A stretch of DNA of 61,391 nt, filler included. It is 10 parts of 10 records of this genome, joined end to end, with 100 filler letters (N's around TTAATTAATTAA, not from the genome) between each part and the next. Parts side by side here need not be neighbours in the genome. Positions count along the whole stretch, not along the records: positions 49,754 to 57,865 come from SRR7504441_8051; 9 more parts are not named here. One strand, written 5' to 3'. The notes below the pieces were generated by a model that saw only the letters and a list, made by a program, of their open reading frames with translations, was not told where the DNA came from and ran no database searches. Shown piece after piece: positions 15,266-58,006 of this stretch (position 1 is its first letter; each line of letters starts with the position of its first letter). The position numbers and the translations under genes are program-made.

Positions 15266-15283
15266 GCTCATGTCATAACGGCA

Positions 15284-16591: not shown

Positions 16592-17902
16592 TCAGGAGGG
16601 CTGCTCTAAATTGCATGCCTGGCTCCAGTCGTCATACGAGTAACTAGGGAACCGGGCCGCCCAGTCATCGACCGTGCACAAGCCGTCCGGGCTGGCTTGA
16701 CAGAAGGGCAGATGCACTATTCTCTCGTTGTGGAAAGTTTGGACTTGTCGCCGCCCACTGCAGTCATAGAGCACGAGCAGCAAGTTGGTGGCCATCGGGG
16801 ACACTTGCGACATATTCCACTTGCGCCCCTGCATCAGCTCGTCGGGCGTGTCGGCAGTGAGCACGAACGAGTCGTTATACAGCCCGAGTGCAGCCAGCAA
16901 CGGCAGCACAGTCTCTGCATGCCCAAACCTGAAGCTCCCGCTAAGGTCAGGCAAGGCCCACTCCCGCTGGATCAGCTGCAAGAGCGGCCTGGCCAGCTGC
17001 AGGTTGACCGGCCGGCCGTATCCATACCCGTAAAACTTCTTTAGATCAACGTAGTATTCGATCGCAGAAAGGTCAACACCGTCTAACAGTCGGCAAAGGC
17101 CCGGCTCCTCCGGACTGCCCATCTGCCAAGCATCCTCGGAGAGCATCAGGTAGCCGCAGCTCTTGAGCAGCGCCAGCAGCTCGCCCACGCTCATCTGCAC
17201 GCCCAGACGGCCCGAGAGCAGCCTGGCGGCCTCGGTGAGTCGCTCTCCTTGCTTCCACTTGTCGGACTCCTCGTCCGCCCTCTCGCTGTGAGCCTGATCC
17301 CGCCAGGTCCCGCAGGCATCAAACGCCCGCAGGATCCTGTCCGACTGACTATCCTCAGTCTCACGGCTCTTAACGGGCAGCTGGCTGCCCTGGCCCCATG
17401 CCCCACGCCGGAACCATTCCGCCGACTGGACAGCGCGCCGCTTGTACGAGGCCTCCAAGTTCGCGCGACCGCCGTTGGGACCGACCAGACCGGGGAACAC
17501 CGCGGCCACCCGCCGGCCTAAGCCGGCCAGCTGGCGCTCTCCGCGCGGGGTGAGCGTGCCCAGCTGCTCTTGGGTGTAGTTTGCCAACGGAAGATCGAGC
17601 CGGAGCCCCCGGAGCCGTGCGAACAGCGGGCTGATCTTGCGGCGCCAGTCCTTGGGCGTCGGGTACCGCGCCCCGTGCCGGCTCACTAGCTGGAGCTGCA
17701 CAGGCAGGCAGCCGCGCTCTCGGGCAGCAGCCGCCCCTGCTGAGAGTTCGGACTGGCTGTCGTCGTAGTCGGTCTTGGTGCTGAGCCGGTGGCGGAGGCT
17801 GGCGGGTGCCGGGCAGCTGGGCCTGCCTACGCACTCCTGCCACCGGCCGGGGAGCGCGGCCAGGCAGCCGATCACTAGCATACTCAGTGCTACGAGTCGC
17901 AT
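16592..17902 (-). CDS. Secreted histidine acid phosphatase, multiple inositol polyphosphate phosphatase (MINPP1)/phytase-like
   Basis: Signal peptide MRLVALSMLVIGCLA, LSTKT.Y, catalytic RHGARYP, GTLTPRG, FGHAET, PMATNL. Confidence 0.88.
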   Translation of the reverse strand: MRLVALSMLVIGCLAALPGRWQECVGRPSCPAPASLRHRLSTKTDYDDSQSELSAGAAAARERGCLPVQLQLVSRHGARYPTPKDWRRKISPLFARLRGLRLDLPLANYTQEQLGTLTPRGERQLAGLGRRVAAVFPGLVGPNGGRANLEASYKRRAVQSAEWFRRGAWGQGSQLPVKSRETEDSQSDRILRAFDACGTWRDQAHSERADEESDKWKQGERLTEAARLLSGRLGVQMSVGELLALLKSCGYLMLSEDAWQMGSPEEPGLCRLLDGVDLSAIEYYVDLKKFYGYGYGRPVNLQLARPLLQLIQREWALPDLSGSFRFGHAETVLPLLAALGLYNDSFVLTADTPDELMQGRKWNMSQVSPMATNLLLVLYDCSGRRQVQTFHNERIVHLPFCQASPDGLCTVDDWAARFPSYSYDDWSQACNLEQPS

Positions 17903-17945
17903 TGTGATGCTGTAGCAAAATTCTCTCGAGAGTGACGCCCTCGGC

Positions 17946-19274
17946 ATGGGCTCGGCGACATCGCGCTTCTATCTGGGGGTAGCCTGCTACCGGACGGTGC
18001 TGGCTGTAGCCTACACCCTTGGGTTCGGCCGGGACGCCGCCAAGGTTGATCTTGGCAACCCCGTGGCGCTGTGTCCCTCATGGCTGCCGTACGGCGCCCT
18101 GCTGGCAAAACTGCACCATCCATCTGTCTACCGGGCGCTCTACCATGGGCTGCCGGTGACGCTGATCACGGCGGCCTGCTTCCCCTCCTACTGGCCGGTT
18201 CGGATGCTCGCGGCCGGGCACGCGGCTGTCCAGCACCTGAGCCAGGCGACACTCACTCGCGGGCACGATGAGTATGCCAGCTGCTACACCCTGCTCGCCC
18301 TGGGCTCGCCCTGGGCCCCGGAGGCGCTCGGACCGGGGGTGGCGCTCGGGAGCGCCATATACATGATGTTTGCCTCCGGGGTGTCCAAGCTGGCGGTGGG
18401 CGGGCCGGCAGACTGGTGCAAGCCGGACACCCTGGGGCACATGCTCCGCAAGATAGGCAGCATTCCGCTCCCAGGCGGGGCACTCGCCCCTGGACTGATG
18501 CGCTGGATGCTCACAAAGCCGGCGCTGCTGGCCGGTGGGGCTGCATCGACGCTGGTTTTTGAACTGGGGTCTCCTGCTGCCTTCGCTCTGCCTTCGGGAG
18601 CTCCGATGCTCCTGGCGTGCCTAGCGCTGCACGCGGGGCACGTGGCGCTCATGTCGCTGTACATTGGGCTGCCGTTCGCACTGTGCGGACTTCCGGTGTA
18701 TGCACTTGGCTTTCTCGGCAGCTGGCCACGGGACTCAGCGGCGTGGTGGATTGGACTCGGCTTCTTTGGAATCTATGCTGGGGCGGCCCTTTTGGTTCGG
18801 AGAGACAAGATGCTTCCCGAGGACTGGCCGTGCACCTGCTACCCGCTGTTCGCCCACTCGGGTCGGCAGCACTCTTTGCTCGCCTTGCCGCTCGACTCGT
18901 CTGAGGGCCGGACGAGGCTAGTGGTGTGCACCGACCGCGCGCCCGACCCTCCGATTGGTTGCCTGCTCTCCAAGGAGTCGACCCCGCGGCAGGGCGAGAA
19001 CGCGCAGGGCCCATTGGTGCATGCGGGAAAGGGCGGCGAGGTGCACGATGCCTGGGGCAACTGCTTTGGCTGGACCGCCTCTGTGTGGCCCCGGCTGTAC
19101 CGAGAGGCTAAGGATCCGGTGCACCTGGCGCAGCTGCTGCAGGACCGGCTGCAGGCCGAGCGTCGATGCATGGAGCGTTCGAGCGGGCTGCCGCTCACCC
19201 GGGCTTATGTGATCCGGCTAGAGGAGAAGGAGGACAGAGTGGCCGAGCTTATCAGCGAGTGGGACGCCGCTTAG
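17946..19274 (+). CDS. Multi-pass membrane protein, HTTM/vitamin-K-dependent carboxylase-like
   Basis: Several hydrophobic helices with Y..SGVSKL..GG..W, LVFELG, LHAG and WP...YPLFA motifs typical of HTTM-like proteins. Confidence 0.5.
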   Translation: MGSATSRFYLGVACYRTVLAVAYTLGFGRDAAKVDLGNPVALCPSWLPYGALLAKLHHPSVYRALYHGLPVTLITAACFPSYWPVRMLAAGHAAVQHLSQATLTRGHDEYASCYTLLALGSPWAPEALGPGVALGSAIYMMFASGVSKLAVGGPADWCKPDTLGHMLRKIGSIPLPGGALAPGLMRWMLTKPALLAGGAASTLVFELGSPAAFALPSGAPMLLACLALHAGHVALMSLYIGLPFALCGLPVYALGFLGSWPRDSAAWWIGLGFFGIYAGAALLVRRDKMLPEDWPCTCYPLFAHSGRQHSLLALPLDSSEGRTRLVVCTDRAPDPPIGCLLSKESTPRQGENAQGPLVHAGKGGEVHDAWGNCFGWTASVWPRLYREAKDPVHLAQLLQDRLQAERRCMERSSGLPLTRAYVIRLEEKEDRVAELISEWDAA

Positions 19275-19437
19275 CGCCTAACCTCTCTATAGTCTAATAT
19301 ATATACATGTATAGATACATTTATTCGTGAAGTCGAGNNNNNNNNNNNNNNNNNNNNNNNNNNNNNNNNNNNNNNNNNNNNTTAATTAATTAANNNNNNN
19401 NNNNNNNNNNNNNNNNNNNNNNNNNNNNNNNNNNNNN

Positions 19438-22400: not shown

Positions 22401-25400
22401 AGCAATACCTTGGGTGTCCTGCAGATGATTGGTGCAAGGACTTGTGCCACCTTGCACAGCTGCTGTGCGAGTTGTGTACCAACGGCGTGGTTGGTCACTC
22501 GCTATTGCATTCTTTTGATCGACCCTGTGCAACTGATCCAGTAAAAATGCCGTGACATCGTTCGCACTGGGGTGGTCAAACAGGAATGTACCCGGCACTT
22601 CGACCTGGTTATTGAGTTTTTTCATCAAGAGGTGCTGCAACTCGGTTGCTGCCAGAGAATCGACCCCTATGTCCATCAGTGAATCCGTTGGAGTAGGGTC
22701 GGCGTTTGACACTTCGCGGACTGATTCAAGTACAATATCCAAAACTCGAGCTGCGTTCAGATCGGAGCCGGTGGCTGAGATGAGTTCCTTTGCAGTGCCA
22801 CTGTCAGGAGGCGGAATAAGACCCCTCATCAGCAGATATGTCATCTGAGGCTGGCGCAACAACGCCAATTCCAGTGCTAGCCACCCAATGACGTTCGGTA
22901 CAGAGGGTGCTGGCACCTCGGCTGGCCGATTGGCTGCCCACATGCCCAATTGCACGTGTGTACCAGGCAAGCCAGCACCGCGCTCCTGATAAAGGAAAGA
23001 CTCGCACCAATTGCTTGCGTGCGCATCATACTCTGCTGAAAAGGATGCTACCATACACCAGTCCAAGGCGTTGCTGGCCGTCTCGCTCGAAGCGTGCATC
23101 AAGCTTCGCTCGTGCATTCCAGTTGATAAATGAAACATTCCTGCAAAGCCATCGGATTGACTCAGAGTTGTAGATACTGAATAGGGTTCAGCAAAATCGC
23201 ACGTTAGTATGTCCACTGCGGCGAATGAGCTTGACAGTGACCGTATGTGCGATAGATCCGCCTGATGTGGCGTGAGGATCGCAATAGATTGCTCGGGACT
23301 ATGTTGCGCAAGCCATTCAATACAAAGCCCTCCAAATGAATGGCCATTCGTGCTGATCAAACATCGACTGTCTGGAGGTAATGCTGGAATCGAAAGAGTT
23401 TGCAAGGTTATTCTTACCAGTGGCGGGGCGGGTGCTTGTATAACCTTATCTATTGAGAAGTCGTCACAGAAGGAATTGAAACAACACATGATGGCATTCA
23501 CAGAGGTTGCATCACAGCGACCGATGTAAGTTCCCGGTATGACAGATGCTACTCTGCGTGTTGACAAAGATAGACTAGAGATAAGTTGGTTGCTGCAAGA
23601 TGCATGCATACTAGCGACGTGTTGCACGGAGACAACATAGGAAATATTGGCAAGTTGGTTGTTCTGCTTGACCAACTGGCGTGTAGCCAACTGTGCAGCT
23701 ACCAACCTTTCGTCACAAATCAGCAGCACCCGGATCTCCCTTGAGATACTAGTCCTCGAAGTGGCTGGCCACATTTGATGGTACGTGTGTGAGCGAATCT
23801 GAGATGCTTCTAGAACCCGCATTTTGAACGTACCAAATTCGGATCTGTCACATTCACACACCTGGTTAAGACCAGCATCGTAAGTTTGACTGCTGTGAGA
23901 GGTCTCGCCTTGACCAAGTGTCCAAACAACAGCATCTCGGCATCCATGAGGAGACATGTGGAAGTGACCAAGTGCCTTGAAGTAAATGATTTCCCTCTTG
24001 TTTGATATTGCAAGCAAACTGAGCGGATATAACGCCACGTCGCAGACTGCGACGTCCCTCAAATGGTTGCTAACTTCGCTGTGATTTTCTTGCTCATCTA
24101 AGATCAGCTTTGCGACTACAGCGGTGCTGTCTCCAGTTTCGAAGCACCAACCAAATGCTAGCGATCGGAAATCTCCTGTACAGGCGTTTGGGTGCACATC
24201 CCGATAAAACGATGTTTTCGTCAGATGGAGGGTAGTTTGAGCAACTGAACCTTTGGCAGGCTCTGGTCGCCTAATTGGTTGGATGTTGGTTGAGCAGCAC
24301 ATATTGAGCGTTTCTCTATCAACACTAGTTCCTCTGGAGGATACCTCAACCAGATTTGACACACAGTCTGCAAGGACCTGCACTTGTGGAGCGCTTTCTG
24401 TATCTCCGAGGTAGAGGAAGTTGCTGAATACGACATCCTTGAGCGCACGATTGGGGTCCGCTGCAAGTGATGCCAGCTTGCAGAAGGCAGTTCCCGGTAC
24501 AACTGGAACAATGCCAACGCGATGATGGGACAGATACTGCATTGTACCAACACCCCACGAGTTCTGCCAACACTGTGCTTGTTCGTTGTTCTCTGTCATC
24601 GAGCCAAGGAAGCTATGCTCTTGATGAGATGGCTGGGAGCGAATGACTTTGTTGTCGAGTCTCGCTGAGGCTCGGCCCTTGCTTAATGCTGCACACATGA
24701 CGTTCTCTGCGATGAGCGTTTCCTTCTGCGCTCGATCTGCCGTCCTTTGTGCCTTCAGTAGGCCATACAGCTTCGAGGCAGAGCTAGCACTACGCTTTGC
24801 ATCAGAAAGTCCTAATTCTGTTGTGTCTACAAGCCCTGTAGCCAAAGCACCAACCCTAGACATGCTGGTGTCTTTCAAATGCAGCTCCTGCGCTAAACTG
24901 GATCCTGTGTGCTCCCCTAAAGAGCAGCTAAAGCGTGTGATTGGATTCATGTTACGGGGCAAGTTGCCGTGGTTCAGAAAGACTCCAGAGGTACAGACCC
25001 GCCAGTCTGCACTCAATGCCAGGGCTACTCCACCACCTATCAGCTTGCCATGAAGTACTGCAACTATCGGAGCTGGCACATCCAATAGCATGGTCACACA
25101 ATCCTCTAAACTCGCGATTGCAGCGGCAGTTGATGCTGTTGTTGCCCTGACTAGCGCCATCGCAGAATCCTTCTGCTGTGCACCCCCAGTGCAGAAATGC
25201 GGTCCTGCTCCATGGAGCATCATTGAGTGGATATGCTGCCCTGTGTTCACAGAAGTCAGCAGTTGCGAAAGACGATTCCGAAGCGCAAACATGAGTGGGA
25301 GGTCCTCCTGCGCACACTAAGTTAGATATTCCGCCTACACTCGGCCCTGGCTTACCGCATTATAGTGTCGCGCGTCGTTCAATTGGAGCTCAATGCTGCC

Positions 25401-29881: not shown

Positions 29882-30149
29882 NNNNNNNNNNNNNNNNNNN
29901 NNNNNNNNNNNNNNNNNNNNNNNNNTTAATTAATTAANNNNNNNNNNNNNNNNNNNNNNNNNNNNNNNNNNNNNNNNNNNNGAGACGGCGGCAGCAAGAA
30001 GAGGAGGAGGCAAGACTCTCATATCGCCGCCGGCAACTGATTACTTTCACCACGATCACGCTTGCTATGGCTTGGGTATTTTCCGAGCTAAGCAGAAAAG
30101 GGTACCTGCGCGATATTTCCTTTCTCTTCGGTCTCGTCTCCTCAGGCGG

Positions 30150-34343: not shown

Positions 34344-35153
34344 NNNNNNNNNNNNNNNNNNNNNNNNNNNNNNNNNNNNNNNNNNNNTTAATTAATTAAN
34401 NNNNNNNNNNNNNNNNNNNNNNNNNNNNNNNNNNNNNNNNNNNCCATTAAGCCGAACTATCAATACAATCGATCATGCAATCGATTAATTATTGAAGCAC
34501 ATGTACGCCCGTGCAAAAAATCGAATACAAATTAAAAGTCATTTGCACTATAATGGGCTGGCCTCGGCGCAGTGTCACACTCCCGGGTGCACTCCAAACA
34601 CTCTTATTAGTGCGGTGAGCACGAGAGTCACGCTTGGAGGGGCGCTTTGAAATGCCGCCATTGGGGCGGCGCCGAGTTCAGGCGTTGGTGCACATCCTCA
34701 GAGGGGTCGGCTCCACGCGTCGCACGCGCTGTGCGAGATCGAGCGGCACCGGGCCGAACAGGCGCACGTGCACGCGGCGTGCGGGCAAGAGACGACTCGG
34801 AACAATGAGCTGAGAGCCTGGGCACACGTGAATGCACTGGAGGACCAGTTGGCTCGGTATCGTGCAACCCAAAGCCAGCTCGAGCAGATGGTGGTACGAA
34901 TCGGGAGTCCGGTGCTTGTGCAGGTGCTGTCGGAGGCACTCGCGCGGGTGTTGGAGTCTCCGGTTGAGCCCGAGCCCGATCGGTCGCCCCGTTGACGCAG
35001 CGCGGTAGCAGTCGAGCAAGGCGGTCTTGCATCGCAATAGGTTAAAAACACACACATTGAAGTAAAGAGGTGAAAACTTTAACCGCAACTATGAGGACTT
35101 ACAATACCGCCAATATTTATCGAGATCGGAGTCGCCCTATGCTTCTAGGCCAC

Positions 35154-37632: not shown

Positions 37633-37969
37633 CAGCGCCTCATCCTGTGAGCTCTGCAGCCATTTTGATGGTCGAAAATGATCATGAAAAAAGTTCAACC
37701 CGTCGACGTCGCGATCGGTGCCAGGATCATGATCAGTGGATCCATGACCCAGGATCCGCGGCCTACGTACTTGGTACTCGTTCATGTAGCTACCTAGGAT
37801 TATACGTATACGTCTCACGGCGTCTAGATCTGAAGATCGTGGCTCCCTTTTAAAAGACCGCTTGACGCTNNNNNNNNNNNNNNNNNNNNNNNNNNNNNNN
37901 NNNNNNNNNNNNNTTAATTAATTAANNNNNNNNNNNNNNNNNNNNNNNNNNNNNNNNNNNNNNNNNNNN

Positions 37970-42449: not shown

Positions 42450-42550
42450 NNNNNNNNNNNNNNNNNNNNNNNNNNNNNNNNNNNNNNNNNNNNTTAATTA
42501 ATTAANNNNNNNNNNNNNNNNNNNNNNNNNNNNNNNNNNNNNNNNNNNNC

Positions 42551-46364: not shown

Positions 46365-46735
46365 NNNNNNNNNNNNNNNNNNNNNNNNNNNNNNNNNNNN
46401 NNNNNNNNTTAATTAATTAANNNNNNNNNNNNNNNNNNNNNNNNNNNNNNNNNNNNNNNNNNNNCCCCCCATATCAGCCAGCACAGCGCCGACCACAACG
46501 CCGCCCACATCGACTCAGCCACACCCCACACCCGACGCGCCCTACCCGCCCCGTCCCTGTCCACGTCAGCCTCCATGCCGTAACGGCCCTTCTCCGGGAT
46601 TAAGTCTACTTTAGGATTGATCACAGACTCTCGTTTACTATTCATTACTAATTTACATCAAGTCTCAGTCAATCAAGTCCTAATATTTGTCGTGCGTATT
46701 GCACCGATTCCAACTAGAATTGTCCGGAATCGTTG

Positions 46736-49149
46736 TTATTGATTGGATTGGCTATTCAATGTTGCCTTGGCCATTGCTTGCTGCATGCCGGTCATACTTG
46801 ACACTGTTCGGTTCTCCTCCTTGCACTCGCTAGCTGTACCATCAGCTGCTGGCTCGCTCATCTTCGCATCACTCACCTCGCTCCCCTTATCGCTCGCCTG
46901 CCGGGGCGAGTGCTTGCTCGATGGCCCCGTCCGGCAGCCAGTCGACCAGAACTTGTGCCTGAGCGCCTTGGACGGCGTAAACCTCTTGTCAGGGTCTATC
47001 TCCAGGCAGCGTGAGATAAGGTCAATGAACTGCCCACCAGTGAGCTCACCGGCCGATCTGCAAGCCCACCTGCAGCAGACTCTCATCCGTCACTCGGCCG
47101 GTGTCGTCTGTCTTGATTTCATCTGAGAGGGACACTCCATCAGTTCGCTTGCGGCGTGAGATACACGCGTAGCTGCCCCAGTCATGAGCGGCCAGCCAGC
47201 AGGCAGGAGCTACCCAATTGCGCGGAACCGATCCTGGAAAGAGAGAGGTTTGGGCTGGCTCTCAAACCGCTCGCCCTCCTTGGTCCCGGGCAGGAAGAAC
47301 CGCCGGCGCTCCATCATATCAGCGGGGGGCAGCCCGAGCAGCGAGGTGATCTTCATCAGCTGGTCTTCAGGCCCCTTGCCGTTGAACAAAGGCCGGCCTG
47401 TGTACAGCTCGAACAGAATGCACCCAAACGACCACATGTCGATCTGGGTGGAGTATGGACAGCCGATCAGCACCTCCGGGGCCCGGTAGAATCGGGACTG
47501 GATGTATGTGGAGCCTTGCTCACCGCCAAAGCAGGACGAGCCAAAGTCTATAATGTTGATCTTTGTCTGTTTTCGGTCAACAACCATCACATTCTCTGGC
47601 TTAAGGTCACAGTGGATTAGATTGACTCCGCTAGACGCCGACAGTATCTGCAGCGTGGGCAAAATTTGGATCCCAAACTTGCGCACCAGCTTGAGTGAAA
47701 GCCCTCGAAAGTTTTGATTCTTGAGCAATAAGTACAGGTCGTATGCGAGCTGCTCAAACACCAGCGCCTGGTGGCCGCAGTGCACGAACGAATTATGCAG
47801 CTTCACAATCGACGCCTCCGGGTGTTTACTGTTCAAGAATCGCAGCGTCTTGACTTCGCGTCGTGACTGCTCAAAGCAGTGCTTCCGGCTGCAAGTCACC
47901 TTGACGCAGACTCGTCGGCACGTCTGCCGGTCGAATGCAAGCCAACACTTGCAGAATGCTCCCCCACCAATTACTGTGTGGACCACGTAACGGCCGTGCG
48001 TGTCGATGCACTCGCCAGGCTCACACAGATAGTTGCCCTGCTGGTCCTCAAAAGTGTTGTTGTTCTGCTTGAGCCGTTCGACCGCCTGGCCTCAAGTTAG
48101 GCAGAGCCCCAGAGCTCAGAGGCACCTGGAGCAACAGATCTATCTTCGCGTATAGAGCGAACGCATTTGGGGTCGGCGTTGATAACACACATTGCTCGTA
48201 GGCTGTCTCTACTGCCACACTCTGCGACAGTATCAGGAGGTGGGAGCTGGCATGGCAGAGCACCTCTGGCTGATGGCCGTTTAAATGGAGCCAGCGTGTG
48301 ACTGCCTGTTGTAACTGAGCCTGCAGGTGTACGTGCTCCTCGTCCCACCCAAGGCCCCACGACTCCGTGGCTGCCTGATGGTCTGCTGTCCCATTTGCTG
48401 CGCAGCACCCACTCAGCCCTGCAGCACCGGTGGCCAGCTCACTGTGGGCAGTCCAACTAAACTCGCGGAGCATCTGGCAGCGCTTCATTAGCTGCCACAG
48501 ATGGCATTTACGCGCAGCAGCAGACCTGTGCCAACCAGCCCTGCTCAGGCGTTTCTGCCAACCCAAACCAGCTACACAACGCTAGGCAGATCCAGCGGCA
48601 CACAGGGCAGAGTGGCGGCGGGAGGTTGGGCTCGCACCCTGACTTCTTCTTCATCTGGGTTTGCTGTTGCTGCTTCATCTTGATCATCTTGTACGTCTGA
48701 GCAATGTTGACAGTCAGCTTTGTCACCGGGCCATTCTCATTCACTCGGCGCCGGTCGGCCGGCGATTTCCTGTAAAGGCCCCAGAATCAGTCGCACGAAT
48801 CGACAGCGCGCGCTAGGCAGGCGTGGGTGGTGCTCGCTCACTTTCGCTTTTGCGGCTGTGCAGCCTCCGGATTGGCTTTTTGCACGTTGTCCTCATTTGA
48901 GGCGGAGGTCTCGTTGGTGGTGGTCTCTGTCGCTACCGGCTTCTCATCCGTGTCGCGCGATCCGACCGAGGACTCGTCCTTTGGCCGCTTGGCTGATTGG
49001 TCGTTGGCGTTGGCTGCCGCCTCTGCGCGCTTCCGGGACCGGGTGGTGGGCGGGGAGCATCGGCTGGATGAGGTGTCGTTGTTTATCGCCGAGTCAGACG
49101 ATGACTCTGGCACGTTTTTGCACTCGTCGGCGGTCTCGTTGAGCTCCAT
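46736..49149 (-). CDS. DYRK1-like dual-specificity protein kinase (5' end uncertain)
   Basis: PVTKLTVNIAQTYKMI (DYRK1 N-terminal motif), DH-box-like EDQQGNY, LLKNQNFRGLSLKLVRKF, IHCDLKPEN, IIDFGSSC, YIQSRFYRAPEV. Confidence 0.88.
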
Positions 49150-49754
49150 TGCCGCCGGATCGAGGGATTGGGCCTGAACCTCTGAACCAGCTATGTGCCC
49201 GGGCGGGCTCGGTCGGAGCGCGGGGTGAAGCAGTCGTGCGGGGGCGCTGTGGGCACCAGATCGCCGGCACTGACCGTGCGCGCCGGTGCTCAGGTGTCGC
49301 CTTGCACTGTCAGCACAACAGCGGGTACGCCAGCTGGGGGATCTGGCGTTGCGCCACCATGGATTCCGCTGCAAATCTTTGGTTGAGGAGTGTTCCACGA
49401 TTAGCAATGCTTGAAAGGCATCTTGAACAGTGACGTGGACTGCTGGACCAAACCGTCGTCTAGAACCTGAATTAATTAATTACGCCCTCTTTCTACAAAT
49501 TCGTAGCTAAGAAGAACCAAAGGTGAGTTTATCATAGACTCCCACCCTGCTCAGTTACCGCTCAGCCCACTTACACTTGTAAACCCGTGGATTGTTCACA
49601 CTTGAGGACTGCGCGACTGCGCACAGTCGGGCCTGTCAGACACTGATCAGCACNNNNNNNNNNNNNNNNNNNNNNNNNNNNNNNNNNNNNNNNNNNNTTA
49701 ATTAATTAANNNNNNNNNNNNNNNNNNNNNNNNNNNNNNNNNNNNNNNNNNNNC

Positions 49755-52700
49755 AGGGAGGGCTTGGCTCACTACGCTGACGCGTTCAAGATGCACAAGA
49801 TCGATGGCAAGAAGCTATGCCTCTTGGATGAAGCCAACTTGCAGGACCTTGAAGTGGCACTCCAGCTGGACCGTCAGGCTATCTTGCAGGCCATTGCGTG
49901 CGGCGAGCCTGCAGCAGGCTTGACGTATGCTGGCTTGTGTGGGGACCAGTCCGATGTCAAGCAATATTTGCCACAGCCACTCAACGGAGGCGATACTTTA
50001 GCCGTAAATGACAGCTGCATGCCAGAGCCGATGGGAAAGGAAGCTGGGTGTCGTCAGCCCATGAGCCCTCTTAGGTATGCATTGAATGAGTCACAAGAGG
50101 GTCCACATCATCTGCATCAAAGCATGGCTCTATGGAATGCTCGACTTTTGGAATTGCATCAAGAAGTTCTTCAGAGTCCTCAGGAGTCTCGGGCCAGGTT
50201 GATTACAAAGGTGAAAGTGTTTGAAGATCGCCTACATAGAGCACAAGACGAGTCGACTAAGCCAGTGTTGACTAAGGCTGGGTATTTCACCAGCCCATCC
50301 ATCACTAAATTGCGAGCAATGACAGCAGATGAGCTGAGCCAGGTCTGTGGGTTTCTCGTGGGTCGGGTTGGAGTTGGTTGCATCGAGTGGGACGGGGCAG
50401 TTGACCTCAGAGGCGCCAACATGGATCGGGATATTGTGATCGAACGAGCAGCTGTTGAAGTGTATCCGGTAGGAACACGTCCAACTCGCGGTATGCTGCT
50501 CAATCGAGCTTGTGCAGTAACACTGTATGGGATATCTACCTCTTTGGTCAAGGAGTTACAACCTATGATTGTGGCTGGGGGCGCTGAATCCATGGCTCAC
50601 GATGAGGGCTCGAGAACATTTCAGTTCCGAATGACGCACTCTTCACACTATGGCATCGAGTCTTCCAAGCTTGACCAGACAACAGGAATCGACTGTGACA
50701 TGCTGAAAACGTATTCGAGTGCGTCCCTTGCAGATTGGGTGCGTCAACGGAAATGGATTTGCTGTCCTGTTGCAAGCGTTATCCTAGCAGAGGTGATCAT
50801 AGACTTAGAAATCGATGGCAGGCAGCTTGCAACAAATTGCACTACAGTAGTAGGGTTGCTATCTCAAGAAATTGGTATGGACCTGGAAGTCATTGGCCAC
50901 AAAGCCAGTCATGCACCAGAAGCTGACGAGTGTAGCAGCTCCGAGACAAAAGCTAGCAGCAGTACCACCCATGAGAAGGATGACGGCTCGCCTAAAGGAC
51001 CCACCCATGATTCGAGTACAACCCTTGACTTTGTTGATCAAAGTATACACAAGATTTTGGGCCAGCTTCCACCAAACGACAGCAATTTGTTTGAATTCGG
51101 ACTCACAAGTAGAGAAGCCGAAAGGTTAATACAAGAGTGCAGAAAGCAGTTTGCTACCGAGATACTAGTCACAGATCTGTTTGCAAACCCAAGTTCAGCT
51201 GCCTTCAGTACTTTTTTGACAGCGAAGCTTGACTCATCGGGGCTGCCAAAAGGCCCACAGTACAGAGGACCAAAGTGTGTACCTGGTGCTGAGCATAATG
51301 CTGTGAAAGACAAAAAAGGACAAAATTCTCATCCAGGGAATTGTCAAATTCGCGAGAATATAGACGACGGCAGCACACCACCATCACCGCGAATTGCTAC
51401 TGATGGAATGATAGACTCTGTGGAACTTAAAGAAAGGCCAGTCACTCTACCTCAGCTGGGGTACAAGCAGATCAATATAGCTGGAATGGCTTGCTGCCTG
51501 GCTCATCCCATTTGTACTCCTCAACAAGCCTGGTGTTCTTTGCTCAGTTTGCGGTGTCACCTTGCGCAACATGTGCCAAACAGATGGCAGCAAGCCTGCA
51601 CACCTGCTTGTGTACCAGATGCTGTTTTGAAAGGAGGCTTTCTTCGTGACGACCTTGAGACTGACTTGCTCAATGCTGGCAGTGTTTCAGCCGACAAAGC
51701 GCCCAAGCTTGACTTGCACATCCGACTGTTGCTTGACAGCACCCTCCGAGCTCTCAAAGACGCCAGTGTTGACAGCGCGTCTATAAAATCTAAAGCTCTG
51801 GCAACATGTACAGCTTCGAACCCAAGTGATTTTGTATTACCCATCAGTGACTTCACTATAGCCCGTTCTTTGGCCTCAATGCTGCGGATCTCTGGGCCTC
51901 ATCAGAATCATAATGCAGCATGTGCTTCAGCCTACCTGGCCATCCACCATGCCTTAGAGATGCTGAAGAGTGATCAGTGCTCTGATGGAGTGGTGGTGTC
52001 CGGAGTGTCATTGCTGCTGAAACCCGACTCAGCACTAGCGCTATTCTCTGGGAAAGTCCTGTCACCTTCAGGCAAGATGCGACCATACGACGTTGCTGCT
52101 GATGGGATGGTGTGGGGTGAGGGCAGTGGGGCGCTCTTGCTCCGGCTTGGAAGCGAGCACCACGCGCTACTGGCAGGATCAGCAGCCAACTGCAACAATT
52201 CCTTGCTGCCAGCTGGATTCACATCGCCAGAGAACATCTCACGTGCTGCAGAGGAGGTGCTCACAAAGGTGCAGATTTTGCCAGATGCGCTGGCTGTGTG
52301 CCACCCTCACGGCATGGGCAATCCAGGCTCGGACTTGCCAGAACTGGCGGGGTTGTTAAAGATGTTGAGAGGCCGGAAGCAGAACTCAGACCCTGTGGTG
52401 CTCGTTGGGCACAAGGCAGCCTTTGGGCACTCAGTCAGTGCAAGTGGATTAATTTCAGTAGTAGCTACGGCATTGACTATGCAGCATCGCAAAGTCTCGG
52501 GCCATGTTGGGGTGTCAGCCCCGGCACAGATCATACAAGACGCACACCCAAACATCCACTTGCCGATGGGTGCACCTGTGGTGTTCACGACTCCAGAAAG
52601 CGCCCACCTGCATGGTTCTGTCAGTGGCACGTCATTTTCAGGTGACAATGTGCACTTGGTGGTGCAAACAAGGGATTCTCCTGAGACTTTATGCTTAGCC

Positions 52701-55700
52701 GGTCGGCACGTGCAGCTAGCTGCCATCACAGCAGAAACTGGGTCCATAGATATTTCAACCGAGTCTGCAGTCACAACAGACTGCAAATTACATGTGGTAG
52801 ACCACAATCCAGAAAATAGCCAAGAGTATTTGGATCTACCGAACAGAAATTTGAATTCAAAACCACACAGTTTCACATCTGTCCCAGCAGTCACCACTGA
52901 AGTATCCCTTATGACTTTGCAGCTGGGAGGCAGAAATAGGAAACACGAATGGAGGCAAGATCAGGATCTCGGCCCAGACACGTTGTGCCAGATAGCTATC
53001 ACTGCAATGGCGTGTCGCCTACCTGCCGGGATTGATACCCTGGATGACATGTGGATATTTCTTAGCGATTGTTACTGTGCCATCACCAACACCACGCCTG
53101 GCTTTCTTGAACCGCTCCTTGAACATGGGGCTGTATCTTCTGCTGCTGCCTACCTGGAAGAGATCATAACAACTGAAGAACGGATTGATCCTGTCCCAGC
53201 TATAGTGGTCGACACAGCACGTGAGGCGCTTGCTGAGGCTAGGCTGGATCTTGCCAACACTGTTGCCGTGTTTGCATGCAGCCCTGTGGTTATGGCTGCG
53301 CAAAAGCTGGTCGAAGCTGTAGGGCCGCACCCCACTGTCTGCGAAACAGTCGACGCCACTTCAACCTCCTCACACCTGGCCTTACATAAGGCAAAAGAAG
53401 GCTTGTCAGCAGGCACATATCCAGCGGCACTTATTGTAGGCGCAACCCTGATCATTAGCAATGAAATCTCGAACCCTGCCATCGTCTCCATCGTCTCGAG
53501 CAGCAATCGGGTTTCTGCGTTCGATGAAGCTGCAGATGGGCTCCTGTTTGGTGAGGGAGTTGCAGCGGTGGTCCTGCAGCGCGCTGATGTTGCCTGTGGC
53601 GAAAGCCACGCCTATTTGCTTGGTTCTGCGGTTACACACAACGGATCAGAATCCCTAGATTTTCCAGACGAGCAGGCAGAGCGCAGAGCAGTCCAACTCG
53701 CGCTGCAATCATCATGTGTGAAGCCGCAGGAGATCAGTTTTGTCGAGATGACTGCCAATGGCACCCCCGTGGGCGATGATGTTGAACTCCATGCCGTAGG
53801 CAGTGTGCTCAATGTTGAAGCTCGGACTGAACCAGTGGTAGTTGGGGGATTCAATGCGAACCTAGCACATCCAACTCATTGCTGTGGATTAGTATCTCTT
53901 TTCAAGGCAGTGATGCAGTTGAAGCACAGGCAGGTGACACCAAACATCCATCTACACAATGCGCTCAGTCCGATCACTACTGGCCAAGCTTTGGCACCCG
54001 TTACGAGGCCACACGACCTGCCGCCAGATGGCCGGATTCTGGCGTCGGTCCACGGGCATGCGACCAGCGGTGTGAATGTCCACCTGATTCTCTCAAGCTC
54101 CAAGCCAGCTGACCGGGACCAAAGGGTGCAATCTGCCGTCCCACAGGCTCCCACCCTTTACCGCCCAGGCTACAGTGCTGTGCCCCCCATCGTGCAGCTG
54201 CGGAGGATGAGTGCTCAGCAGCTTAGCAAGGTAGCTGGCTTTAAGCTGCAGCGAGTGGACATAGGATCTGTTCAGTGGGAGCAGCCTGTGGATCTGCGAG
54301 GAGCTGACTTGGACCTTGTGGAGCTCGATCATGCAGGCATCAGTGCTGCTCAGCTGCCATGTCTCAACCAACCCTGCGTGGTGCACTTGCAGGGCATGTT
54401 TCCAAAGCCTGGGAAGGGACTCAAGTACTCTGGGAAGCTGCAGCGAGCAGTGGAGCGGCGGGGACAGGAATGGCTAGGCTATGATGAAGCTGCTGGAGAG
54501 ATGATGTTCAAGGTGCACCACTTCTCTCGAATCCGGTTTGACGACGACCTGTCGGATTCAGACGAGGCCCGAACCGATTCCAGCTCAAAATTGCGCAATC
54601 AGTCATCTGGCCAGGACAGTTTAAGAGTGTACGTTAGAGGGAATGGACCTGCAACACAAATATCTCCTGGTACCTTCGAGATATCAGAGTCAGATGGGAG
54701 CGAGTCGGATGGCTCTACCGCGCCTGAGCAACAGCCAGTGGGACATGCTGTCAAGAGCTCGGACCAACTGAAAGGAGCAGTTGATGCATTTGTAGTGAAC
54801 TCGGCTAAGGAAATAATAGGTTACGCGGTTGACAGAGATTGTAATGTGTTTGAAGCTGGATTCCAGAGTGTCGACGGCACTCAGTTGGTATCCCGCTGTG
54901 CTCAGCACTTTGACATGGATGTCACCCCGATCGACTTGTTTGCGCGACCTGTTCTTGCTGATTTTTCTGAATTTCTGGTACAAAGATTGAGCAGCAGTGT
55001 ACCTACCATGCTTAGGAGCACTGCCAAATCTCCACTACAAGGCAGTGGATTCTTGGACTCGACATTGCCAAAACGTAGAGGGGATGTCACTTCCACGAGA
55101 ACTGCAGGTGACCCAGACGCGGACCGACTGGCGTTGGCAAGTTCAATCCAATCTCGCATTATACCAATTGTCCGCCAAGTGCTCGACGTGCCTGACAGTG
55201 TGACTGATGAGGACATTGTGGCAAGCCATGGTGATTGGTTTGGGCAAATAAAAAGTGTGCAAGCAGTTAAGCTGGCGCGAGAATTGAATCGCCAAATCCC
55301 TGAGATGGGGATCACACCACTTGATATCTTGAAATGCTCCTCGGGAGCTGAGCTGGTGTCTTGTTGCATCGAGAAGATCGCAGGTGTCGGAGTCGAAACC
55401 CACGCGACTATGGTTGAACCCCCCCTGCTAGCAGCAGGACCTCAAATCGACACAGGCGCTTCTGCAGACAATTACAAGGTGCGCAAGGACAGTGTCGCTC
55501 TGCAGGTTGCGCAGCGGCATTCGACGTGCAGCACCACGATAGCTGCCCTGCTGCAGGCACTAGGTATCTTCAGCCTAGTATCCATCTCTGCCATCGCCTT
55601 CCTACCGGGCTGGCTTCTGCTGGCGCTGGCAGCAGAGCACATCGGGGATGCCGCGGCGCTCTACATGTTGCCGCTGGTATTTGTGCCGCTGCTACTGTCT

Positions 55701-57863
55701 CTCATGTTCGTTGTGGTCCTGCTGCGTCGTCTAGTCTCAGTGGTCCCACCAGGGTCGTACCCACTCTGGAGCTGGCCCTACCTCCGGTGGTGGTACGGTC
55801 AACTGCTCTTCCGCACGACACATGCCGTCTCGGGCCCGCTGTTTGAGGACAGTATCTTCATGCTCTTGTGGCTGCGGCTGCTGGGCGCTCAGATCGGGGC
55901 TGGATCGCGCATCTCCATCGGCGACGGCAGCTGCTTTGAGTTGCTCTCTGTGGGTGACGAGGCAAGCTTGGGCAGCAGTCTCTACTGCCACGAGGTGTGG
56001 GACTGCCTGCTCCACATTCGACCGGTGGTGATCGGGTCGCGGTGCAGCAATGGCACCGGGAGTGTAATCCTGCCTGGAGCAGTGCTCGAGGACGATGCGC
56101 ATCTGATGCCACTGTCCTCAGTGTGCTGCGCCACCTTACCGGCCAGCAAGTGGATAGGCACTCCGCCCCAGCCCTATCTAGAGGAGAGCGAGCGAGAGAG
56201 ACGTGTTGCAGACGTGCCTGAGGATGACAGCAGGCAGTATGTGGTGCGCCAGATGCTGCAAGGTCTAGGGATTTTGCTGCTGCCCGGGCTGCTGCTCGCG
56301 ATGGCGCTACCGTCGATCTACATGATCCTTTACACGCCCGCAGGCACCATCGACTCCGACCTGTCGCTGCTGATCTTCGGGTTCCTGGGGCTGCTGCTGT
56401 GGATTCTGGTGCAGTTTGTGCTTTTTGTGCCGCTGTACTGGTTGCTGCAAGGCCGGCTGCGCGACGGGCAGAGCTGCCACAGGGACTCCTTCTTGGTGGT
56501 CCGCATGTGGCTCGTGGATTGCTTAGGGGCTAATCCTCAGTTCTGCTTGGATTACTTGCTCTCCAATGTTTCCATTAAACTATGGTACTGGGTTTTGCTT
56601 GGAGCCGAAGTTTACATGCCGTCTACAAACCTCTCCGGCCGCTATCGCTTGTCACAGGTTAGTCTGATCCAGATTGGCAGAAACACTTTTATTAGTGGTG
56701 GTGCATTCGGTCCAACATCCTCACAGGGGGCACGGTTGGATTTTCATATAATTTCAGTTGGATCCCAGTGTGACATGGCGCTCATGTCGAACATACAGGG
56801 TAATATGGAGGAGCGTAGTATGCTTGGTAGTCTAGCTTGGCTACCTCAGGGCAAATCGGTTCCAGCTGGCCATACAGGCCTGGGCACACCAGTGAGTATG
56901 TTGAAGATGGGGCATGGGCAAGAGAGTGAGAAGAAAATCCCCACCCGGCCAACTTGGAGCACCGTAGTGCTAATATCATGGGTTGTGCTTGTCATACCGC
57001 TTGTGTTCTTACTTGGTGCAGTCGCTGGCTTTGAAGCCGTGTGGGCATACGATTCTGACACCCTGCAATACATCCTCGGAGGTTGTAATCGCAACGAACT
57101 TCGGTTGGTGTACGGCACTGCAGAGCTGCCTATCAAGGAGTGTCTAGACCTCGTAGGCTCAATACTATTTTCTGCATTTAGTATCTCCAACGTTGGCGAG
57201 ACCCTAGAACGGTTGATTATCTATGCAATGTGCCTAAATTTGAGTGTGATGACTCTACCGCCATGTGTGATCGCGCTCAAGTGGATCACTATGGGACGAT
57301 ACATGCCCCATGAAACTAGAGCTCAGGATCGCCCTGACAGCGATGCGTATGACTTTCAAGAAGCCGTGCGTGGCCTAAAGTACCAGTGTGCATACTTGAT
57401 GCACATCAATGTTGCTGGCGGCACCTTGGCACTCTTGCGGGGGACGGGCATCATTACGAGTATCATAAAGCTCCTTGGTGGAGGTGTCCACCCGTTGTCC
57501 CAATTCATCGACTCGGGCAATATCCTTGATTTTGACCTTTTGACTATTGGCGAAGATTGCTGCATCAACGCAGACTCATACGTCATTGGCCACATGTTTC
57601 AATACGGCGAGTTGCAGCACAACTTTGTGGACATGGGAGCACGCTGTAACGTTGGGGCCGGCGCCATGGTAGTTCCGGGCGTCACTATCAAAGACGATGC
57701 CAGCTTGTGCACTTTGTCACGGGCATTTAATGGAGAAATTTTAGAACCAAATCGGGTGTATGCGGGTGTGCCCGCCAAGAAATTGCATGCGGCACCAAAC
57801 CAGACTGAGGGGCTTCGACGCCGTTTCCAAGGTACCCCTCTGGCTTGCTCACGACAGCCTTGA
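49755..57863 (+). CDS. AT-less PKS-like megaprotein (PKS-B): SAM-S59-SAM*-ACP-KS-KS*-S59(HFS)-ACP-ACP-Pls-type membrane terminal domain; 5' truncated
   Basis: Single open frame of at least 2700 codons from the contig edge. SAM (YADAFKMHKIDGKKLCLL..LQDLEV); ACPs GLTS, GFQS, QIKS; KS NAACAS/HGMGN/FGH; degenerate second KS; two Nup98-like autopeptidase domains; three TM + hexapeptide-repeat units (PGSYPLWSWPYLRWW, LRLLGAQIG, DFDLLTIGEDC). Confidence 0.9.
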   Translation, partial: REGLAHYADAFKMHKIDGKKLCLLDEANLQDLEVALQLDRQAILQAIACGEPAAGLTYAGLCGDQSDVKQYLPQPLNGGDTLAVNDSCMPEPMGKEAGCRQPMSPLRYALNESQEGPHHLHQSMALWNARLLELHQEVLQSPQESRARLITKVKVFEDRLHRAQDESTKPVLTKAGYFTSPSITKLRAMTADELSQVCGFLVGRVGVGCIEWDGAVDLRGANMDRDIVIERAAVEVYPVGTRPTRGMLLNRACAVTLYGISTSLVKELQPMIVAGGAESMAHDEGSRTFQFRMTHSSHYGIESSKLDQTTGIDCDMLKTYSSASLADWVRQRKWICCPVASVILAEVIIDLEIDGRQLATNCTTVVGLLSQEIGMDLEVIGHKASHAPEADECSSSETKASSSTTHEKDDGSPKGPTHDSSTTLDFVDQSIHKILGQLPPNDSNLFEFGLTSREAERLIQECRKQFATEILVTDLFANPSSAAFSTFLTAKLDSSGLPKGPQYRGPKCVPGAEHNAVKDKKGQNSHPGNCQIRENIDDGSTPPSPRIATDGMIDSVELKERPVTLPQLGYKQINIAGMACCLAHPICTPQQAWCSLLSLRCHLAQHVPNRWQQACTPACVPDAVLKGGFLRDDLETDLLNAGSVSADKAPKLDLHIRLLLDSTLRALKDASVDSASIKSKALATCTASNPSDFVLPISDFTIARSLASMLRISGPHQNHNAACASAYLAIHHALEMLKSDQCSDGVVVSGVSLLLKPDSALALFSGKVLSPSGKMRPYDVAADGMVWGEGSGALLLRLGSEHHALLAGSAANCNNSLLPAGFTSPENISRAAEEVLTKVQILPDALAVCHPHGMGNPGSDLPELAGLLKMLRGRKQNSDPVVLVGHKAAFGHSVSASGLISVVATALTMQHRKVSGHVGVSAPAQIIQDAHPNIHLPMGAPVVFTTPESAHLHGSVSGTSFSGDNVHLVVQTRDSPETLCLAGRHVQLAAITAETGSIDISTESAVTTDCKLHVVDHNPENSQEYLDLPNRNLNSKPHSFTSVPAVTTEVSLMTLQLGGRNRKHEWRQDQDLGPDTLCQIAITAMACRLPAGIDTLDDMWIFLSDCYCAITNTTPGFLEPLLEHGAVSSAAAYLEEIITTEERIDPVPAIVVDTAREALAEARLDLANTVAVFACSPVVMAAQKLVEAVGPHPTVCETVDATSTSSHLALHKAKEGLSAGTYPAALIVGATLIISNEISNPAIVSIVSSSNRVSAFDEAADGLLFGEGVAAVVLQRADVACGESHAYLLGSAVTHNGSESLDFPDEQAERRAVQLALQSSCVKPQEISFVEMTANGTPVGDDVELHAVGSVLNVEARTEPVVVGGFNANLAHPTHCCGLVSLFKAVMQLKHRQVTPNIHLHNALSPITTGQALAPVTRPHDLPPDGRILASVHGHATSGVNVHLILSSSKPADRDQRVQSAVPQAPTLYRPGYSAVPPIVQLRRMSAQQLSKVAGFKLQRVDIGSVQWEQPVDLRGADLDLVELDHAGISAAQLPCLNQPCVVHLQGMFPKPGKGLKYSGKLQRAVERRGQEWLGYDEAAGEMMFKVHHFSRIRFDDDLSDSDEARTDSSSKLRNQSSGQDSLRVYVRGNGPATQISPGTFEISESDGSESDGSTAPEQQPVGHAVKSSDQLKGAVDAFVVNSAKEIIGYAVDRDCNVFEAGFQSVDGTQLVSRCAQHFDMDVTPIDLFARPVLADFSEFLVQRLSSSVPTMLRSTAKSPLQGSGFLDSTLPKRRGDVTSTRTAGDPDADRLALASSIQSRIIPIVRQVLDVPDSVTDEDIVASHGDWFGQIKSVQAVKLARELNRQIPEMGITPLDILKCSSGAELVSCCIEKIAGVGVETHATMVEPPLLAAGPQIDTGASADNYKVRKDSVALQVAQRHSTCSTTIAALLQALGIFSLVSISAIAFLPGWLLLALAAEHIGDAAALYMLPLVFVPLLLSLMFVVVLLRRLVSVVPPGSYPLWSWPYLRWWYGQLLFRTTHAVSGPLFEDSIFMLLWLRLLGAQIGAGSRISIGDGSCFELLSVGDEASLGSSLYCHEVWDCLLHIRPVVIGSRCSNGTGSVILPGAVLEDDAHLMPLSSVCCATLPASKWIGTPPQPYLEESERERRVADVPEDDSRQYVVRQMLQGLGILLLPGLLLAMALPSIYMILYTPAGTIDSDLSLLIFGFLGLLLWILVQFVLFVPLYWLLQGRLRDGQSCHRDSFLVVRMWLVDCLGANPQFCLDYLLSNVSIKLWYWVLLGAEVYMPSTNLSGRYRLSQVSLIQIGRNTFISGGAFGPTSSQGARLDFHIISVGSQCDMALMSNIQGNMEERSMLGSLAWLPQGKSVPAGHTGLGTPVSMLKMGHGQESEKKIPTRPTWSTVVLISWVVLVIPLVFLLGAVAGFEAVWAYDSDTLQYILGGCNRNELRLVYGTAELPIKECLDLVGSILFSAFSISNVGETLERLIIYAMCLNLSVMTLPPCVIALKWITMGRYMPHETRAQDRPDSDAYDFQEAVRGLKYQCAYLMHINVAGGTLALLRGTGIITSIIKLLGGGVHPLSQFIDSGNILDFDLLTIGEDCCINADSYVIGHMFQYGELQHNFVDMGARCNVGAGAMVVPGVTIKDDASLCTLSRAFNGEILEPNRVYAGVPAKKLHAAPNQTEGLRRRFQGTPLACSRQP
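50262..50657 (+). other. Nup98/Nup145 autopeptidase (peptidase S59)-like domain 1 in PKS-B, motif variant HSS
   Basis: PVLTKAGYFTSPSITKL..VCGFLVGRVGVGCIEWDGAVDL..IVIERAAVEVYP..RPTRGMLLNRACAVTL..FQFRMTHSSHYGI parallels Nup98 ILTK.GYYTIPS..F.IGR.GYG.I.F...V.L..EV.VY..G.GLN..A.VTL..W.F.V.HFSKYGL. Confidence 0.82.
54150..54565 (+). other. Nup98/Nup145 autopeptidase (peptidase S59)-like domain 2 in PKS-B, intact HF|S site (54519-54527)
   Basis: PTLYRPGYSAVPPIVQL..LSKVAGFKLQRVDIGSVQWEQPVDL..LNQPCVVHL..KYSGKLQR..WLGYDEAAGEMMFKVHHFSRIRFDDDLSDSDE, including the acidic stretch after HFS as in Nup98. Confidence 0.85.
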
Positions 57864-58006
57864 GTNNNNNNNNNNNNNNNNNNNNNNNNNNNNNNNNNNN
57901 NNNNNNNNNTTAATTAATTAANNNNNNNNNNNNNNNNNNNNNNNNNNNNNNNNNNNNNNNNNNNNCAGGGGGGTGCCCACTTCCGATTCTAACGGCAGTC
58001 GTTGTT

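Follow-up and report, generated by a model that had tools for sequence, protein, structure and literature searches.

A Nup98-type autopeptidase domain as candidate subunit junction of a protist polyketide synthase with a Pls-type membrane domain

Why should a domain regarded as a speciality of the nuclear pore be placed in secondary metabolism, as a would-be joint between enzyme subunits? The question is raised by a gene in a 61,391-base stretch of DNA (the window), which is made up of 10 contigs joined end to end. On one of these contigs, a single reading frame combines domains of a polyketide synthase (PKS) with two copies of the Nup98-type autopeptidase domain (MEROPS family S59, Pfam PF04096), here called S59-1 and S59-2. 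According to Pfam and NCBIfam matches, the order in the frame is a sterile alpha motif (SAM) domain, S59-1, an acyl carrier protein domain (ACP1), two ketosynthase domains (KS1 and KS2), S59-2, two further ACPs and a membrane domain of the Pls/PosA type (Table 1). The initial annotation had described one uninterrupted frame (49755-57863) holding ACP and KS domains together with two S59 domains, and both parts of this description hold: the frame is open from the contig's first bases (49754/49755) to the stop codon at 57861-57863, and Pfam matches were obtained for all of these domains. The protein analysed (P0001) has 2699 amino acids (aa), counted from a TTG codon at 49764; because its SAM match starts only at profile position 17, it lacks the N-terminus, and the gene is truncated at its 5' end. 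We explain this 5'-truncated gene best as a eukaryotic type I PKS that lacks an acyltransferase (AT) and is fused to a Pls-type membrane off-loading domain. With moderate confidence, we propose that S59 is a subunit junction of a protist PKS, in which S59-2 would cut between F1587 and S1588, the soluble part would stay docked to a membrane part of 1112 aa, and S59-1 would probably bind only.

Judged by profiles and structure models, both domains are genuine Nup98-type S59 domains. The whole protein matches PF04096 (Nucleoporin2) with 127.3 bits (E = 6.7e-37) in two stretches; scanned as separate pieces, S59-1 (80.3 bits) and S59-2 (64.6 bits) each pass the cut-off of 28.4 bits, the latter over profile positions 2-145 of 148. 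In a phmmer search against PDB sequences, S59-2 matches Nup145N (5hb6, E = 2.2e-8) and the autoproteolytic domains (APDs) of Nup98, and its alignment to the solved APDs extends to HF, the last residues of those processed chains. Small alignments were used to build the AlphaFold2 models, which had a predicted local distance difference test score (pLDDT) of 89.2 and a predicted template modelling score (pTM) of 0.83 for S59-2, and of 81.6 and 0.74 for S59-1. For each model, Foldseek returned 22 matches in the PDB at E <= 0.001; all among the matches listed are APDs of Nup98, Nup145N or Nup116, with template modelling (TM) scores of 0.6-0.8, and the next match has an E value of 0.2-0.3 for both models. 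S59-2 matches 1ko6 with E = 1.6e-10 and TM 0.80, and S59-1 matches the Nup98 APD with E = 2.1e-11 and a target TM of 0.70-0.75. The profile scan and the structural comparison with Nup98 had been named as checks by the initial annotation, and they substantiate its observation of two domains resembling the Nup98/Nup145 APD.

Searching the window in six frames with a profile of PKS-linked S59 domains yielded two copies and no more, S59-1 and S59-2, the first of them preceded by a conserved helical stretch ('SMALW...'). The two copies are only 33% identical to each other and are therefore old paralogues, not two captures of one nucleoporin gene. As a separate matter, we considered and rejected the possibility that the gene itself encodes a nucleoporin, in agreement with what had been concluded at the outset from the lack of FG/GLFG repeats and Nup96 sequence: the whole protein has no Pfam match at E <= 1 to Nucleoporin_FG (PF13634) or Nup96 (PF12110), its 2699 aa contain 6 FG dipeptides and 0 GLFG, and the domains stand in a KS/ACP context.

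The residues around the putative cleavage sites differ between the copies. The junction of S59-2 reads ..MMFKVHHF/SRIRFDDDLSDSDE, with HHFS at aa 1585-1588; the H-F-S tripeptide lies exactly at the coordinates first assigned to it (54519-54527), and the acidic tract that was said to follow is contained in the downstream SRIRFDDDLSDSDE. Most nucleoporins among the 150 best S59 matches of the protein search described below read ..HF/SRYGLDDDSDDE, and the Nup98-96 proteins in the match list have HFSRYGLDDDSDDE at the position matching SRIRFDDDLSDSDE. On this comparison, S59-2 keeps the tripeptide, strand and acidic tract that in Nup96 come after the cut. According to published work, the HFS tripeptide is needed for autocleavage of Nup98-96 (PMC4483485). 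The preceding bond is attacked by the Ser in an N-O acyl shift, and the structure requires the buried Phe: F-to-H abolishes cleavage, and H-to-A or H-to-Q has only a slight effect (PMC3210808). By these published requirements S59-2 looks cleavage-competent. S59-1 reads T-H-S-S-HYG at its junction, without H-F-S; since it has no Phe and F-to-H abolishes cleavage of Nup98 (PMC3210808), S59-1 probably does not cut and would act in binding or as a scaffold only. It is important to note that S59-1 shares this change with P0195, a nucleoporin-like fragment among the public proteins, whose Nup98-96 junction is canonical apart from its H-S-S (HHSS-RYALLDDD), so that cleavage by S59-1 may occur.

Related marine sequences also pair S59 with PKS domains. 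We compared a profile of the two S59 domains with 1.84 billion representative proteins and obtained 1989 matches at E <= 0.001, none of them at E <= 1e-30. Most of the 150 best matches are Nup98-96-like. Seven of the 150 (P0136, P0139, P0142, P0190, P0191, P0237 and P0243) carry KS, ACP or ketoreductase (KR) domains, as detected with parts of P0001 or of P0295, and four more (P0135, P0221, P0164 and P0256) have mates with KS, KR or ACP in their 90% clusters. A word-indexed search among longer proteins with a seven-sequence profile gave 11 matches, seven of which have either KS, or KR with phosphopantetheine-binding (PP-binding) domains, together with PF04096; the remaining four comprise one protein with S59 only and three nucleoporins. 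S59 was found joined to KS, ACP or KR-ACP in about 16 independent clusters of public sequences, whose sources are Logan, MERC, JGI/IMG, ENA and NCBI and whose contigs measure 1-63 kb. These clusters modify the initial statement that no described PKS with S59 was known: in the full-text literature we found no publication linking a PKS to S59, PF04096 or a nucleoporin domain (a mention in supplementary or subscription-journal domain tables is possible), and the listed papers that name both a PKS and a nucleoporin are, judging from their titles, gene lists or reviews of other subjects, but the fusion is not unique, as it recurs in public sequence data. The closest relatives resemble P0001 on both sides of the fusion. 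Over 326 aa, P0136 has a KS with 49% identity to KS1, and the stretch formed by its 'SMALW' helix and the S59 that follows has 43% identity to S59-1 over 181 aa; for P0273 (ACP-KS-S59), the identities are 35% between its KS and KS1 and 43% between its S59 and S59-2. The best identity of the PKS-linked S59 domains, 46%, is to other PKS-linked copies.

The PKS-linked domains fall into three classes. Class A (10 proteins in 5 clusters) has the order (ACP-)KS-S59 and ends in EHFS[RK] plus 10 (SRVSTELHPN, SRLSTELQTR) or 23 residues, after which the protein ends. By analogy it resembles the short Nup98 isoform, whose tail is taken off by the same autocleavage and whose uncleavable form is non-functional, according to PMC4483485. 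Class B (at least 6 clusters, in some cases with contigs of 12-63 kb) consists of KR-ACP-ACP-S59 or ACP-ACP-S59 proteins that end exactly at the P1 aromatic residue (..DQF, EQF, EGF, DVF, DCW, ECF) and have neither the His nor the Ser of the motif; again by analogy, this is the processed form written into the gene, like the binding-only Nup116-type domains. Class C comprises the internal copies, namely the two domains of P0001 and that of P0136 (H-S-P, then about 100 more residues). Such a spread would be expected for a docking domain that can also be supplied in a fused, self-releasing form. The early suggestion that S59 acts as a cleavable linker or docking module thus finds strong comparative support in relatives whose C-terminal S59 has HFS and a short tail or ends where the would-be product ends. 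Seven further non-nucleoporin S59 proteins, in which no other recognisable domains were found, lie in or beside the PKS-linked groups (P0170, P0176, P0231, P0239, P0244, P0229 and P0253); P0170 has two tandem S59 copies ending ENF/G.

Other searches delimit this distribution. The whole-protein homology search returned only generic bacterial-type PKSs, with 24-34% identity over 9-22% of the query and none with PF04096, and contained no full-length orthologue; the S59-2 region had no match among proteins of 1484-4724 aa. Contigs of prokaryote genomes (185,579 species genomes) gave 0 relatives among 207 and among 42 pattern matches, the corresponding counts are 0 of 26 for viral contigs (IMG/VR) and 0 of 154 for metagenome contigs, and a further scan of metagenome contigs gave 5 loci matching the KR-ACP part only and not S59.

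In phylogenetic trees, the PKS-linked copies fall into groups of their own. We built a FastTree phylogeny of 163 distinct S59 domains, 96 of them labelled as nucleoporins by a heuristic (8 or more FG dipeptides, or over 600 aa following the S59 domain). A single 31-row group in this tree (support 76) unites all 16 rows labelled as PKS with 15 whose context is unknown and includes none of the 96 nucleoporin rows. In an IQ-TREE analysis under a mixture model with 71 rows (the 31-row group and 40 nucleoporins drawn at random from the 96), S59-2 groups with class A (13 rows, support 95), S59-1 groups with P0136 (support 95), and class B, the KR-ACP set, forms its own clade (9 rows, support 100). 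The approximately unbiased test did not reject a tree in which the 16 PKS rows form a clade to the exclusion of the 40 nucleoporins, this constrained tree being better by 6.03 log-likelihood units (p = 0.653); a single recruitment of S59 into PKSs is possible on these data.

What kind of synthase carries these domains? We class the protein as a type I PKS by the Cys-His-His of KS1, all three residues being present in an alignment to the KS of erythronolide synthase, and by PP-binding matches at three places, which include a weaker second stretch downstream of ACP2 (PF00550, about aa 1800-1860). In the same alignment, the Cys of KS2 is replaced by Ser and its first His is lost (Thr), with the second His kept, and on these residues KS2 is non-condensing and KS0-like. 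Pfam found no AT, KR, dehydratase, enoylreductase or thioesterase domain in the part of the protein present; for AT (PF00698) there is no match at E <= 1, so the enzyme is AT-less or trans-AT-like, at least in that part. An atlas look-up, which we treat as a lead only, places KS2-S59-2-ACP nearest to a eukaryotic KS-ACP cluster in which Haptophyta are commonest (0.89). The SAM domain is an unusual partner for a PKS, and it sits at the cut N-terminus, where the upstream part is missing.

The C-terminal region matches TIGR02353, the Pls/PosA C-terminal domain, from aa 1930 to 2314 and beyond with 182.9 bits, below the curated cut-off of 423.1; by this score it is a relative of Pls/PosA and not an equivalog. 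A simple hydropathy scan places six membrane-like segments there in three pairs (aa 1921-1958/1960-1998, 2160-2191/2194-2230 and 2396-2429/2484-2505), a layout that we take to be that of Pls-type synthetases, and a hexapeptide repeat lies at aa 2624-2647 (Hexapep, 27.2 bits). No adenylation domain (PF00501) was matched in the protein; the gene's 5' end is missing, but the carrier domains come directly after S59-2. It is also unusual in its own right that KS and ACP domains are combined with a Pls-type membrane off-loading domain. A membrane part of about 1112 aa with ACP-ACP-Pls-type order had been predicted beyond the cut, and the computed length of the product starting at S1588 is indeed 1112 aa, with two ACPs and a Pls-type domain bearing the six membrane-like segments.

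In the mechanism that we propose, S59-2 would cut its own chain at F1587/S1588 soon after folding, by the N-to-O acyl shift known from Nup98-Nup96, with Ser1588 as the attacking residue. The cut would yield a soluble part (..SAM, S59-1, ACP, KS1, KS0, S59-2) and the 1112-aa membrane part, whose new N-terminal strand (SRIRF...) would remain in the groove of S59-2 and hold both parts together, and S59-1, which would not cut, would retain an upstream part or a different subunit. A complex prediction of S59-2 (aa 1455-1587) with the next 73 residues scored 0.18, the mark being 0.34, and speaks neither for nor against this docking. Chain extension on the carrier domains would fall to KS1, probably assisted by a trans-acting AT, KS2 being presumably non-condensing, and the Pls-type domain would pass the acyl group from the carrier to an acceptor at the membrane or on its other side. 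At the level of the family, S59 would be a docking domain of protist PKS subunits that may be internal, C-terminal with HFS and a short removable tail, or C-terminal and ending at the aromatic residue. We advance more tentatively, at somewhat less than an even chance, the wider idea that S59 forms an unrecognised, eukaryote-specific class of PKS docking domains and that some protist PKSs are polyproteins that cut themselves into docked subunits.

Both S59 domains could instead be uncleaved modules of a polypeptide that stays whole, each serving as a rigid spacer or as an oligomerisation or partner-binding domain. This would agree with the H-S-S of S59-1 and the H-S-P of its closest relative, P0136, with the KR-ACP-S59 relatives, which have lost His and Ser and would keep the fold for binding alone, and with the uncleaved Nup98-Nup96 junctions that work in S. 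pombe and Trypanosoma, as reported in PMC4483485. However, the exact H-F-S-[RK] in S59-2 and in all 10 KS-S59 relatives is hard to explain without catalysis, and where a protein stops 10 residues beyond HFS, this tail is understandable chiefly as a plug to be removed; we consider a wholly uncleaved protein unlikely, while giving it appreciable weight. The fold might also keep a role in nuclear-pore targeting and tether the synthase to the pore or to the nuclear envelope/endoplasmic reticulum through Nup96 or a propeller of the Nup88/Nup82 type. The structure search is headed by solved complexes in which this fold binds Nup82, Nup88 and the N-terminus of Nup145C, and the C-terminal domain of the protein is membrane-embedded according to the hydropathy scan. 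Against such a role, the S59 domains linked to PKSs cluster in clades of their own that have diverged considerably from the nucleoporins, with their best identity (46%) to one another, and their location at module boundaries or at the C-termini of KS, ACP-ACP and KR-ACP subunits is a docking pattern and not that of a localisation tag, all of which makes pore targeting improbable. That the contig is a chimera of PKS and nucleoporin reads might be suspected from the fragmented assembly and from a contig cut at one end. Such an origin would need two separate in-frame joins within 2703 codons, and the two S59 copies, 33% identical, are closest to PKS-linked S59 domains of independent assemblies. 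There is no FG repeat or Nup96 sequence, and the GC content at third codon positions (GC3), which varies between 0.43 and 0.64 along the frame, has no sharp break at the S59 segments. With the fusion recurring in independent public sequences as well, we rejected the chimera, whose probability we regard as minimal.

Several points weigh against the self-cutting, docked junction that we prefer. Cleavage and continued docking are read from sequence, here and in the relatives, and S59-1 has no Phe at its site. An uncleavable Nup98-Nup96 is viable in S. pombe, and Nup158 of Trypanosoma is naturally uncleaved, so that uncleaved S59 junctions work, as reported in PMC4483485. The deep branches of the S59 tree are poorly resolved, and IQ-TREE places class B among the nucleoporins with support of 86-88. 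The ends of the relatives at true stop codons derive from gene calls on contigs of 12-63 kb. Finally, the assembly is fragmented, the contig is cut at its 5' end, and its deviating GC3 makes the source organism uncertain.

How does this arrangement compare with known systems? The APD of Nup98-Nup96/Nup145 has the same fold (TM 0.7-0.8 to 1ko6, 2q5x and 5hb6), shares the H-F-S of S59-2 and has a similar strand and acidic tract (HFSRIRFDDDLSDSDE here, HFSRYGLDDDSDDE there). In contrast to Nup98-Nup96, there is no FG/GLFG sequence upstream and no Nup96 downstream, S59 lies between KS and ACP, and there are two copies, one of which has H-S-S. The C-terminal domain of Nup116/Nup100 (3pbp, 2aiv, 3nf5) has the same fold as a non-cleaving, pure binding module. 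Like Nup116, the KR-ACP-ACP-S59 relatives have the fold as their very last part and no residues beyond it that could be cut off, which implies a binding role, whereas their partner is presumably another PKS subunit and not a propeller of the Nup82 type. The docking domains of modular PKSs and nonribosomal peptide synthetases (helix bundles, DHD, COM and beta-hairpin; PMC9113145) occur at the same positions, the C-terminus of a subunit or between modules, and presumably share with S59 the ordered non-covalent assembly of subunits. Unlike them, S59 has an unrelated fold of about 130-140 residues, is eukaryotic and may cleave itself, which would allow a fused precursor to turn into docked subunits; the review of docking domains (PMC9113145) makes no mention of nucleoporin, proteolysis or eukaryotes. 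The Pls/PosA synthetases (the epsilon-poly-L-lysine synthetase family, TIGR02353) likewise have a C-terminal region of about 770 aa with six paired segments and soluble domains of the hexapeptide type after the carriers, and differ from our protein in that the latter has no adenylation domain, would have its carriers fed by KS and scores below the family cut-off. In the ZU5/FIIND (CARD8, NLRP1), GAIN/GPS and SEA domains, there is likewise a cis-autoproteolytic site of the H/S-F-S type with an acyl shift and fragments that stay bound, as described in PMC3210808, and the corresponding cleavage in our protein is a predicted one. Their folds and cellular contexts are different from those of S59. 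We know of no ZU5/FIIND, GAIN/GPS or SEA module in a biosynthetic megasynthase.

The novelty lies in the use of a known self-cutting and docking domain in a new machine, a Nup98 domain exapted with its cleavage site and partner strand intact. The PKZILLA preprint and the proteomics paper on PKSs of Karenia brevis make no mention of nucleoporin, cleavage or docking. If cleavage and docking are true, S59 would be a new docking class of megasynthases, the first from eukaryotes and the first able to turn a fused precursor into docked subunits; it would also suggest how the numerous small, discrete type-I-like PKS proteins found in marine protists are assembled, and would give megasynthase engineering a linker that already cleaves and docks itself. 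The proposal further provides a testable idea for how the assembly lines of protist polyketides (of the toxin type) are built up.

Table 1. Coordinates, in the window, of the contig, the reading frame and its domains, and the spacers between contigs
Feature	Position	Strand	Evidence or remark
Contig holding the S59-PKS gene	49754-57865	.	8112 bp, spacer on both sides
Open frame	49755-57863	+	5'-open at contig start, stop 57861-57863; 2703 codons
SAM (sterile alpha motif), N-terminally cut, aa 1-45	49764-49898	+	PF00536, 29.9 bits as piece; profile positions 17-61 of 64
S59-1, Nup98-type autopeptidase-fold domain, Pfam aa 172-284	50259-50651	+	PF04096, 80.3 bits; PKS-linked S59 profile, 155 bits
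H-S-S, aa 292-294, at the place of the catalytic H-F-S; P1 Phe replaced by Ser	50637-50645	+	Alignment
ACP1 (PP-binding), aa 427-485	51042-51218	+	PF00550, 28.3 bits
KS1, aa 569-980, Cys-His-His triad	51468-52703	+	PF00109/PF02801; alignment to erythronolide-synthase KS
KS2, about aa 1083-1444, KS0-like by alignment	53010-54095	+	PF02801, aa 1283-1397; NF053555, aa 1176-1444; alignment
S59-2, Nup98-type autopeptidase domain, Pfam aa 1468-1589	54147-54542	+	PF04096, 64.6 bits; 5hb6, E = 2.2e-8; AlphaFold2; Foldseek
H1586-F1587-S1588, predicted scissile bond F1587/S1588	54519-54527	+	Aligns with HF/S of Nup98-96 and with the HF C-terminus of solved APD chains
SRIRFDDDLSDSDE, strand resembling the Nup96 N-terminus, and acidic tract	54525-54566	+	Compared with HFSRYGLDDDSDDE of most nucleoporin matches
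ACP2 (PP-binding), aa 1677-1738	54792-54977	+	PF00550, 40.9 bits, 2 stretches
Pls/PosA-type C-terminal membrane domain	55551-57860	+	TIGR02353, 182.9 bits; Hexapep, 27.2 bits; hydropathy scan
Spacers	15166-15265, 19338-19437, 29882-29981, 34344-34443, 37870-37969, 42450-42549, 46365-46464, 49654-49753, 57866-57965		

The contigs of the window are separated by 9 spacers, each of the form N44-TTAATTAATTAA-N44 (N runs and spacer letters), so that genes on either side of a spacer are not physically linked, and it is not certain that all contigs come from one organism. The codon usage of the S59-PKS contig is unlike that of the neighbouring contigs: its GC3 is 0.54, and that of six non-PKS open reading frames on other contigs (12195-19274 and 47210-48091) is 0.66-0.81. 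A second PKS contig (19438-29881) has a GC3 of 0.48-0.51, and the gap that sets these two contigs apart could reflect a different organism in the assembly, a special class of genes or a recent transfer. The second PKS contig is read on the - strand and is open at both ends, with two frames between which there is a stop (25293-25334). A partial KS, an ACP, a KS and an HMG-CoA synthase are encoded in the first frame, and the second holds an enoyl-CoA hydratase-type domain (ECH), a dehydratase, a weak KR, an ACP, a KS and a luciferase-like monooxygenase. The KS motifs of this contig (HLHAMGNPGSD and SGTSASGDNVHLVL) are those of the S59-linked KS group, and the S59 profile found no S59 domain on it in the six-frame scan of the window.

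Genes of other kinds lie on the remaining contigs. A gene resembling NPC1/Patched is present in pieces on the - strand (12195-15145), with a sterol-sensing domain and the NPC1 middle luminal domain in separate frames, and other contigs carry an ankyrin-PhyH protein and a MINPP1-like phosphatase, which are eukaryotic. Split, intron-bearing genes on these contigs indicate that the assembly is eukaryotic genomic DNA. On the - strand at 47210-48091, a frame of 293 aa resembles, judged by eye only, the catalytic domain of a protein kinase (HCDLKPENV).

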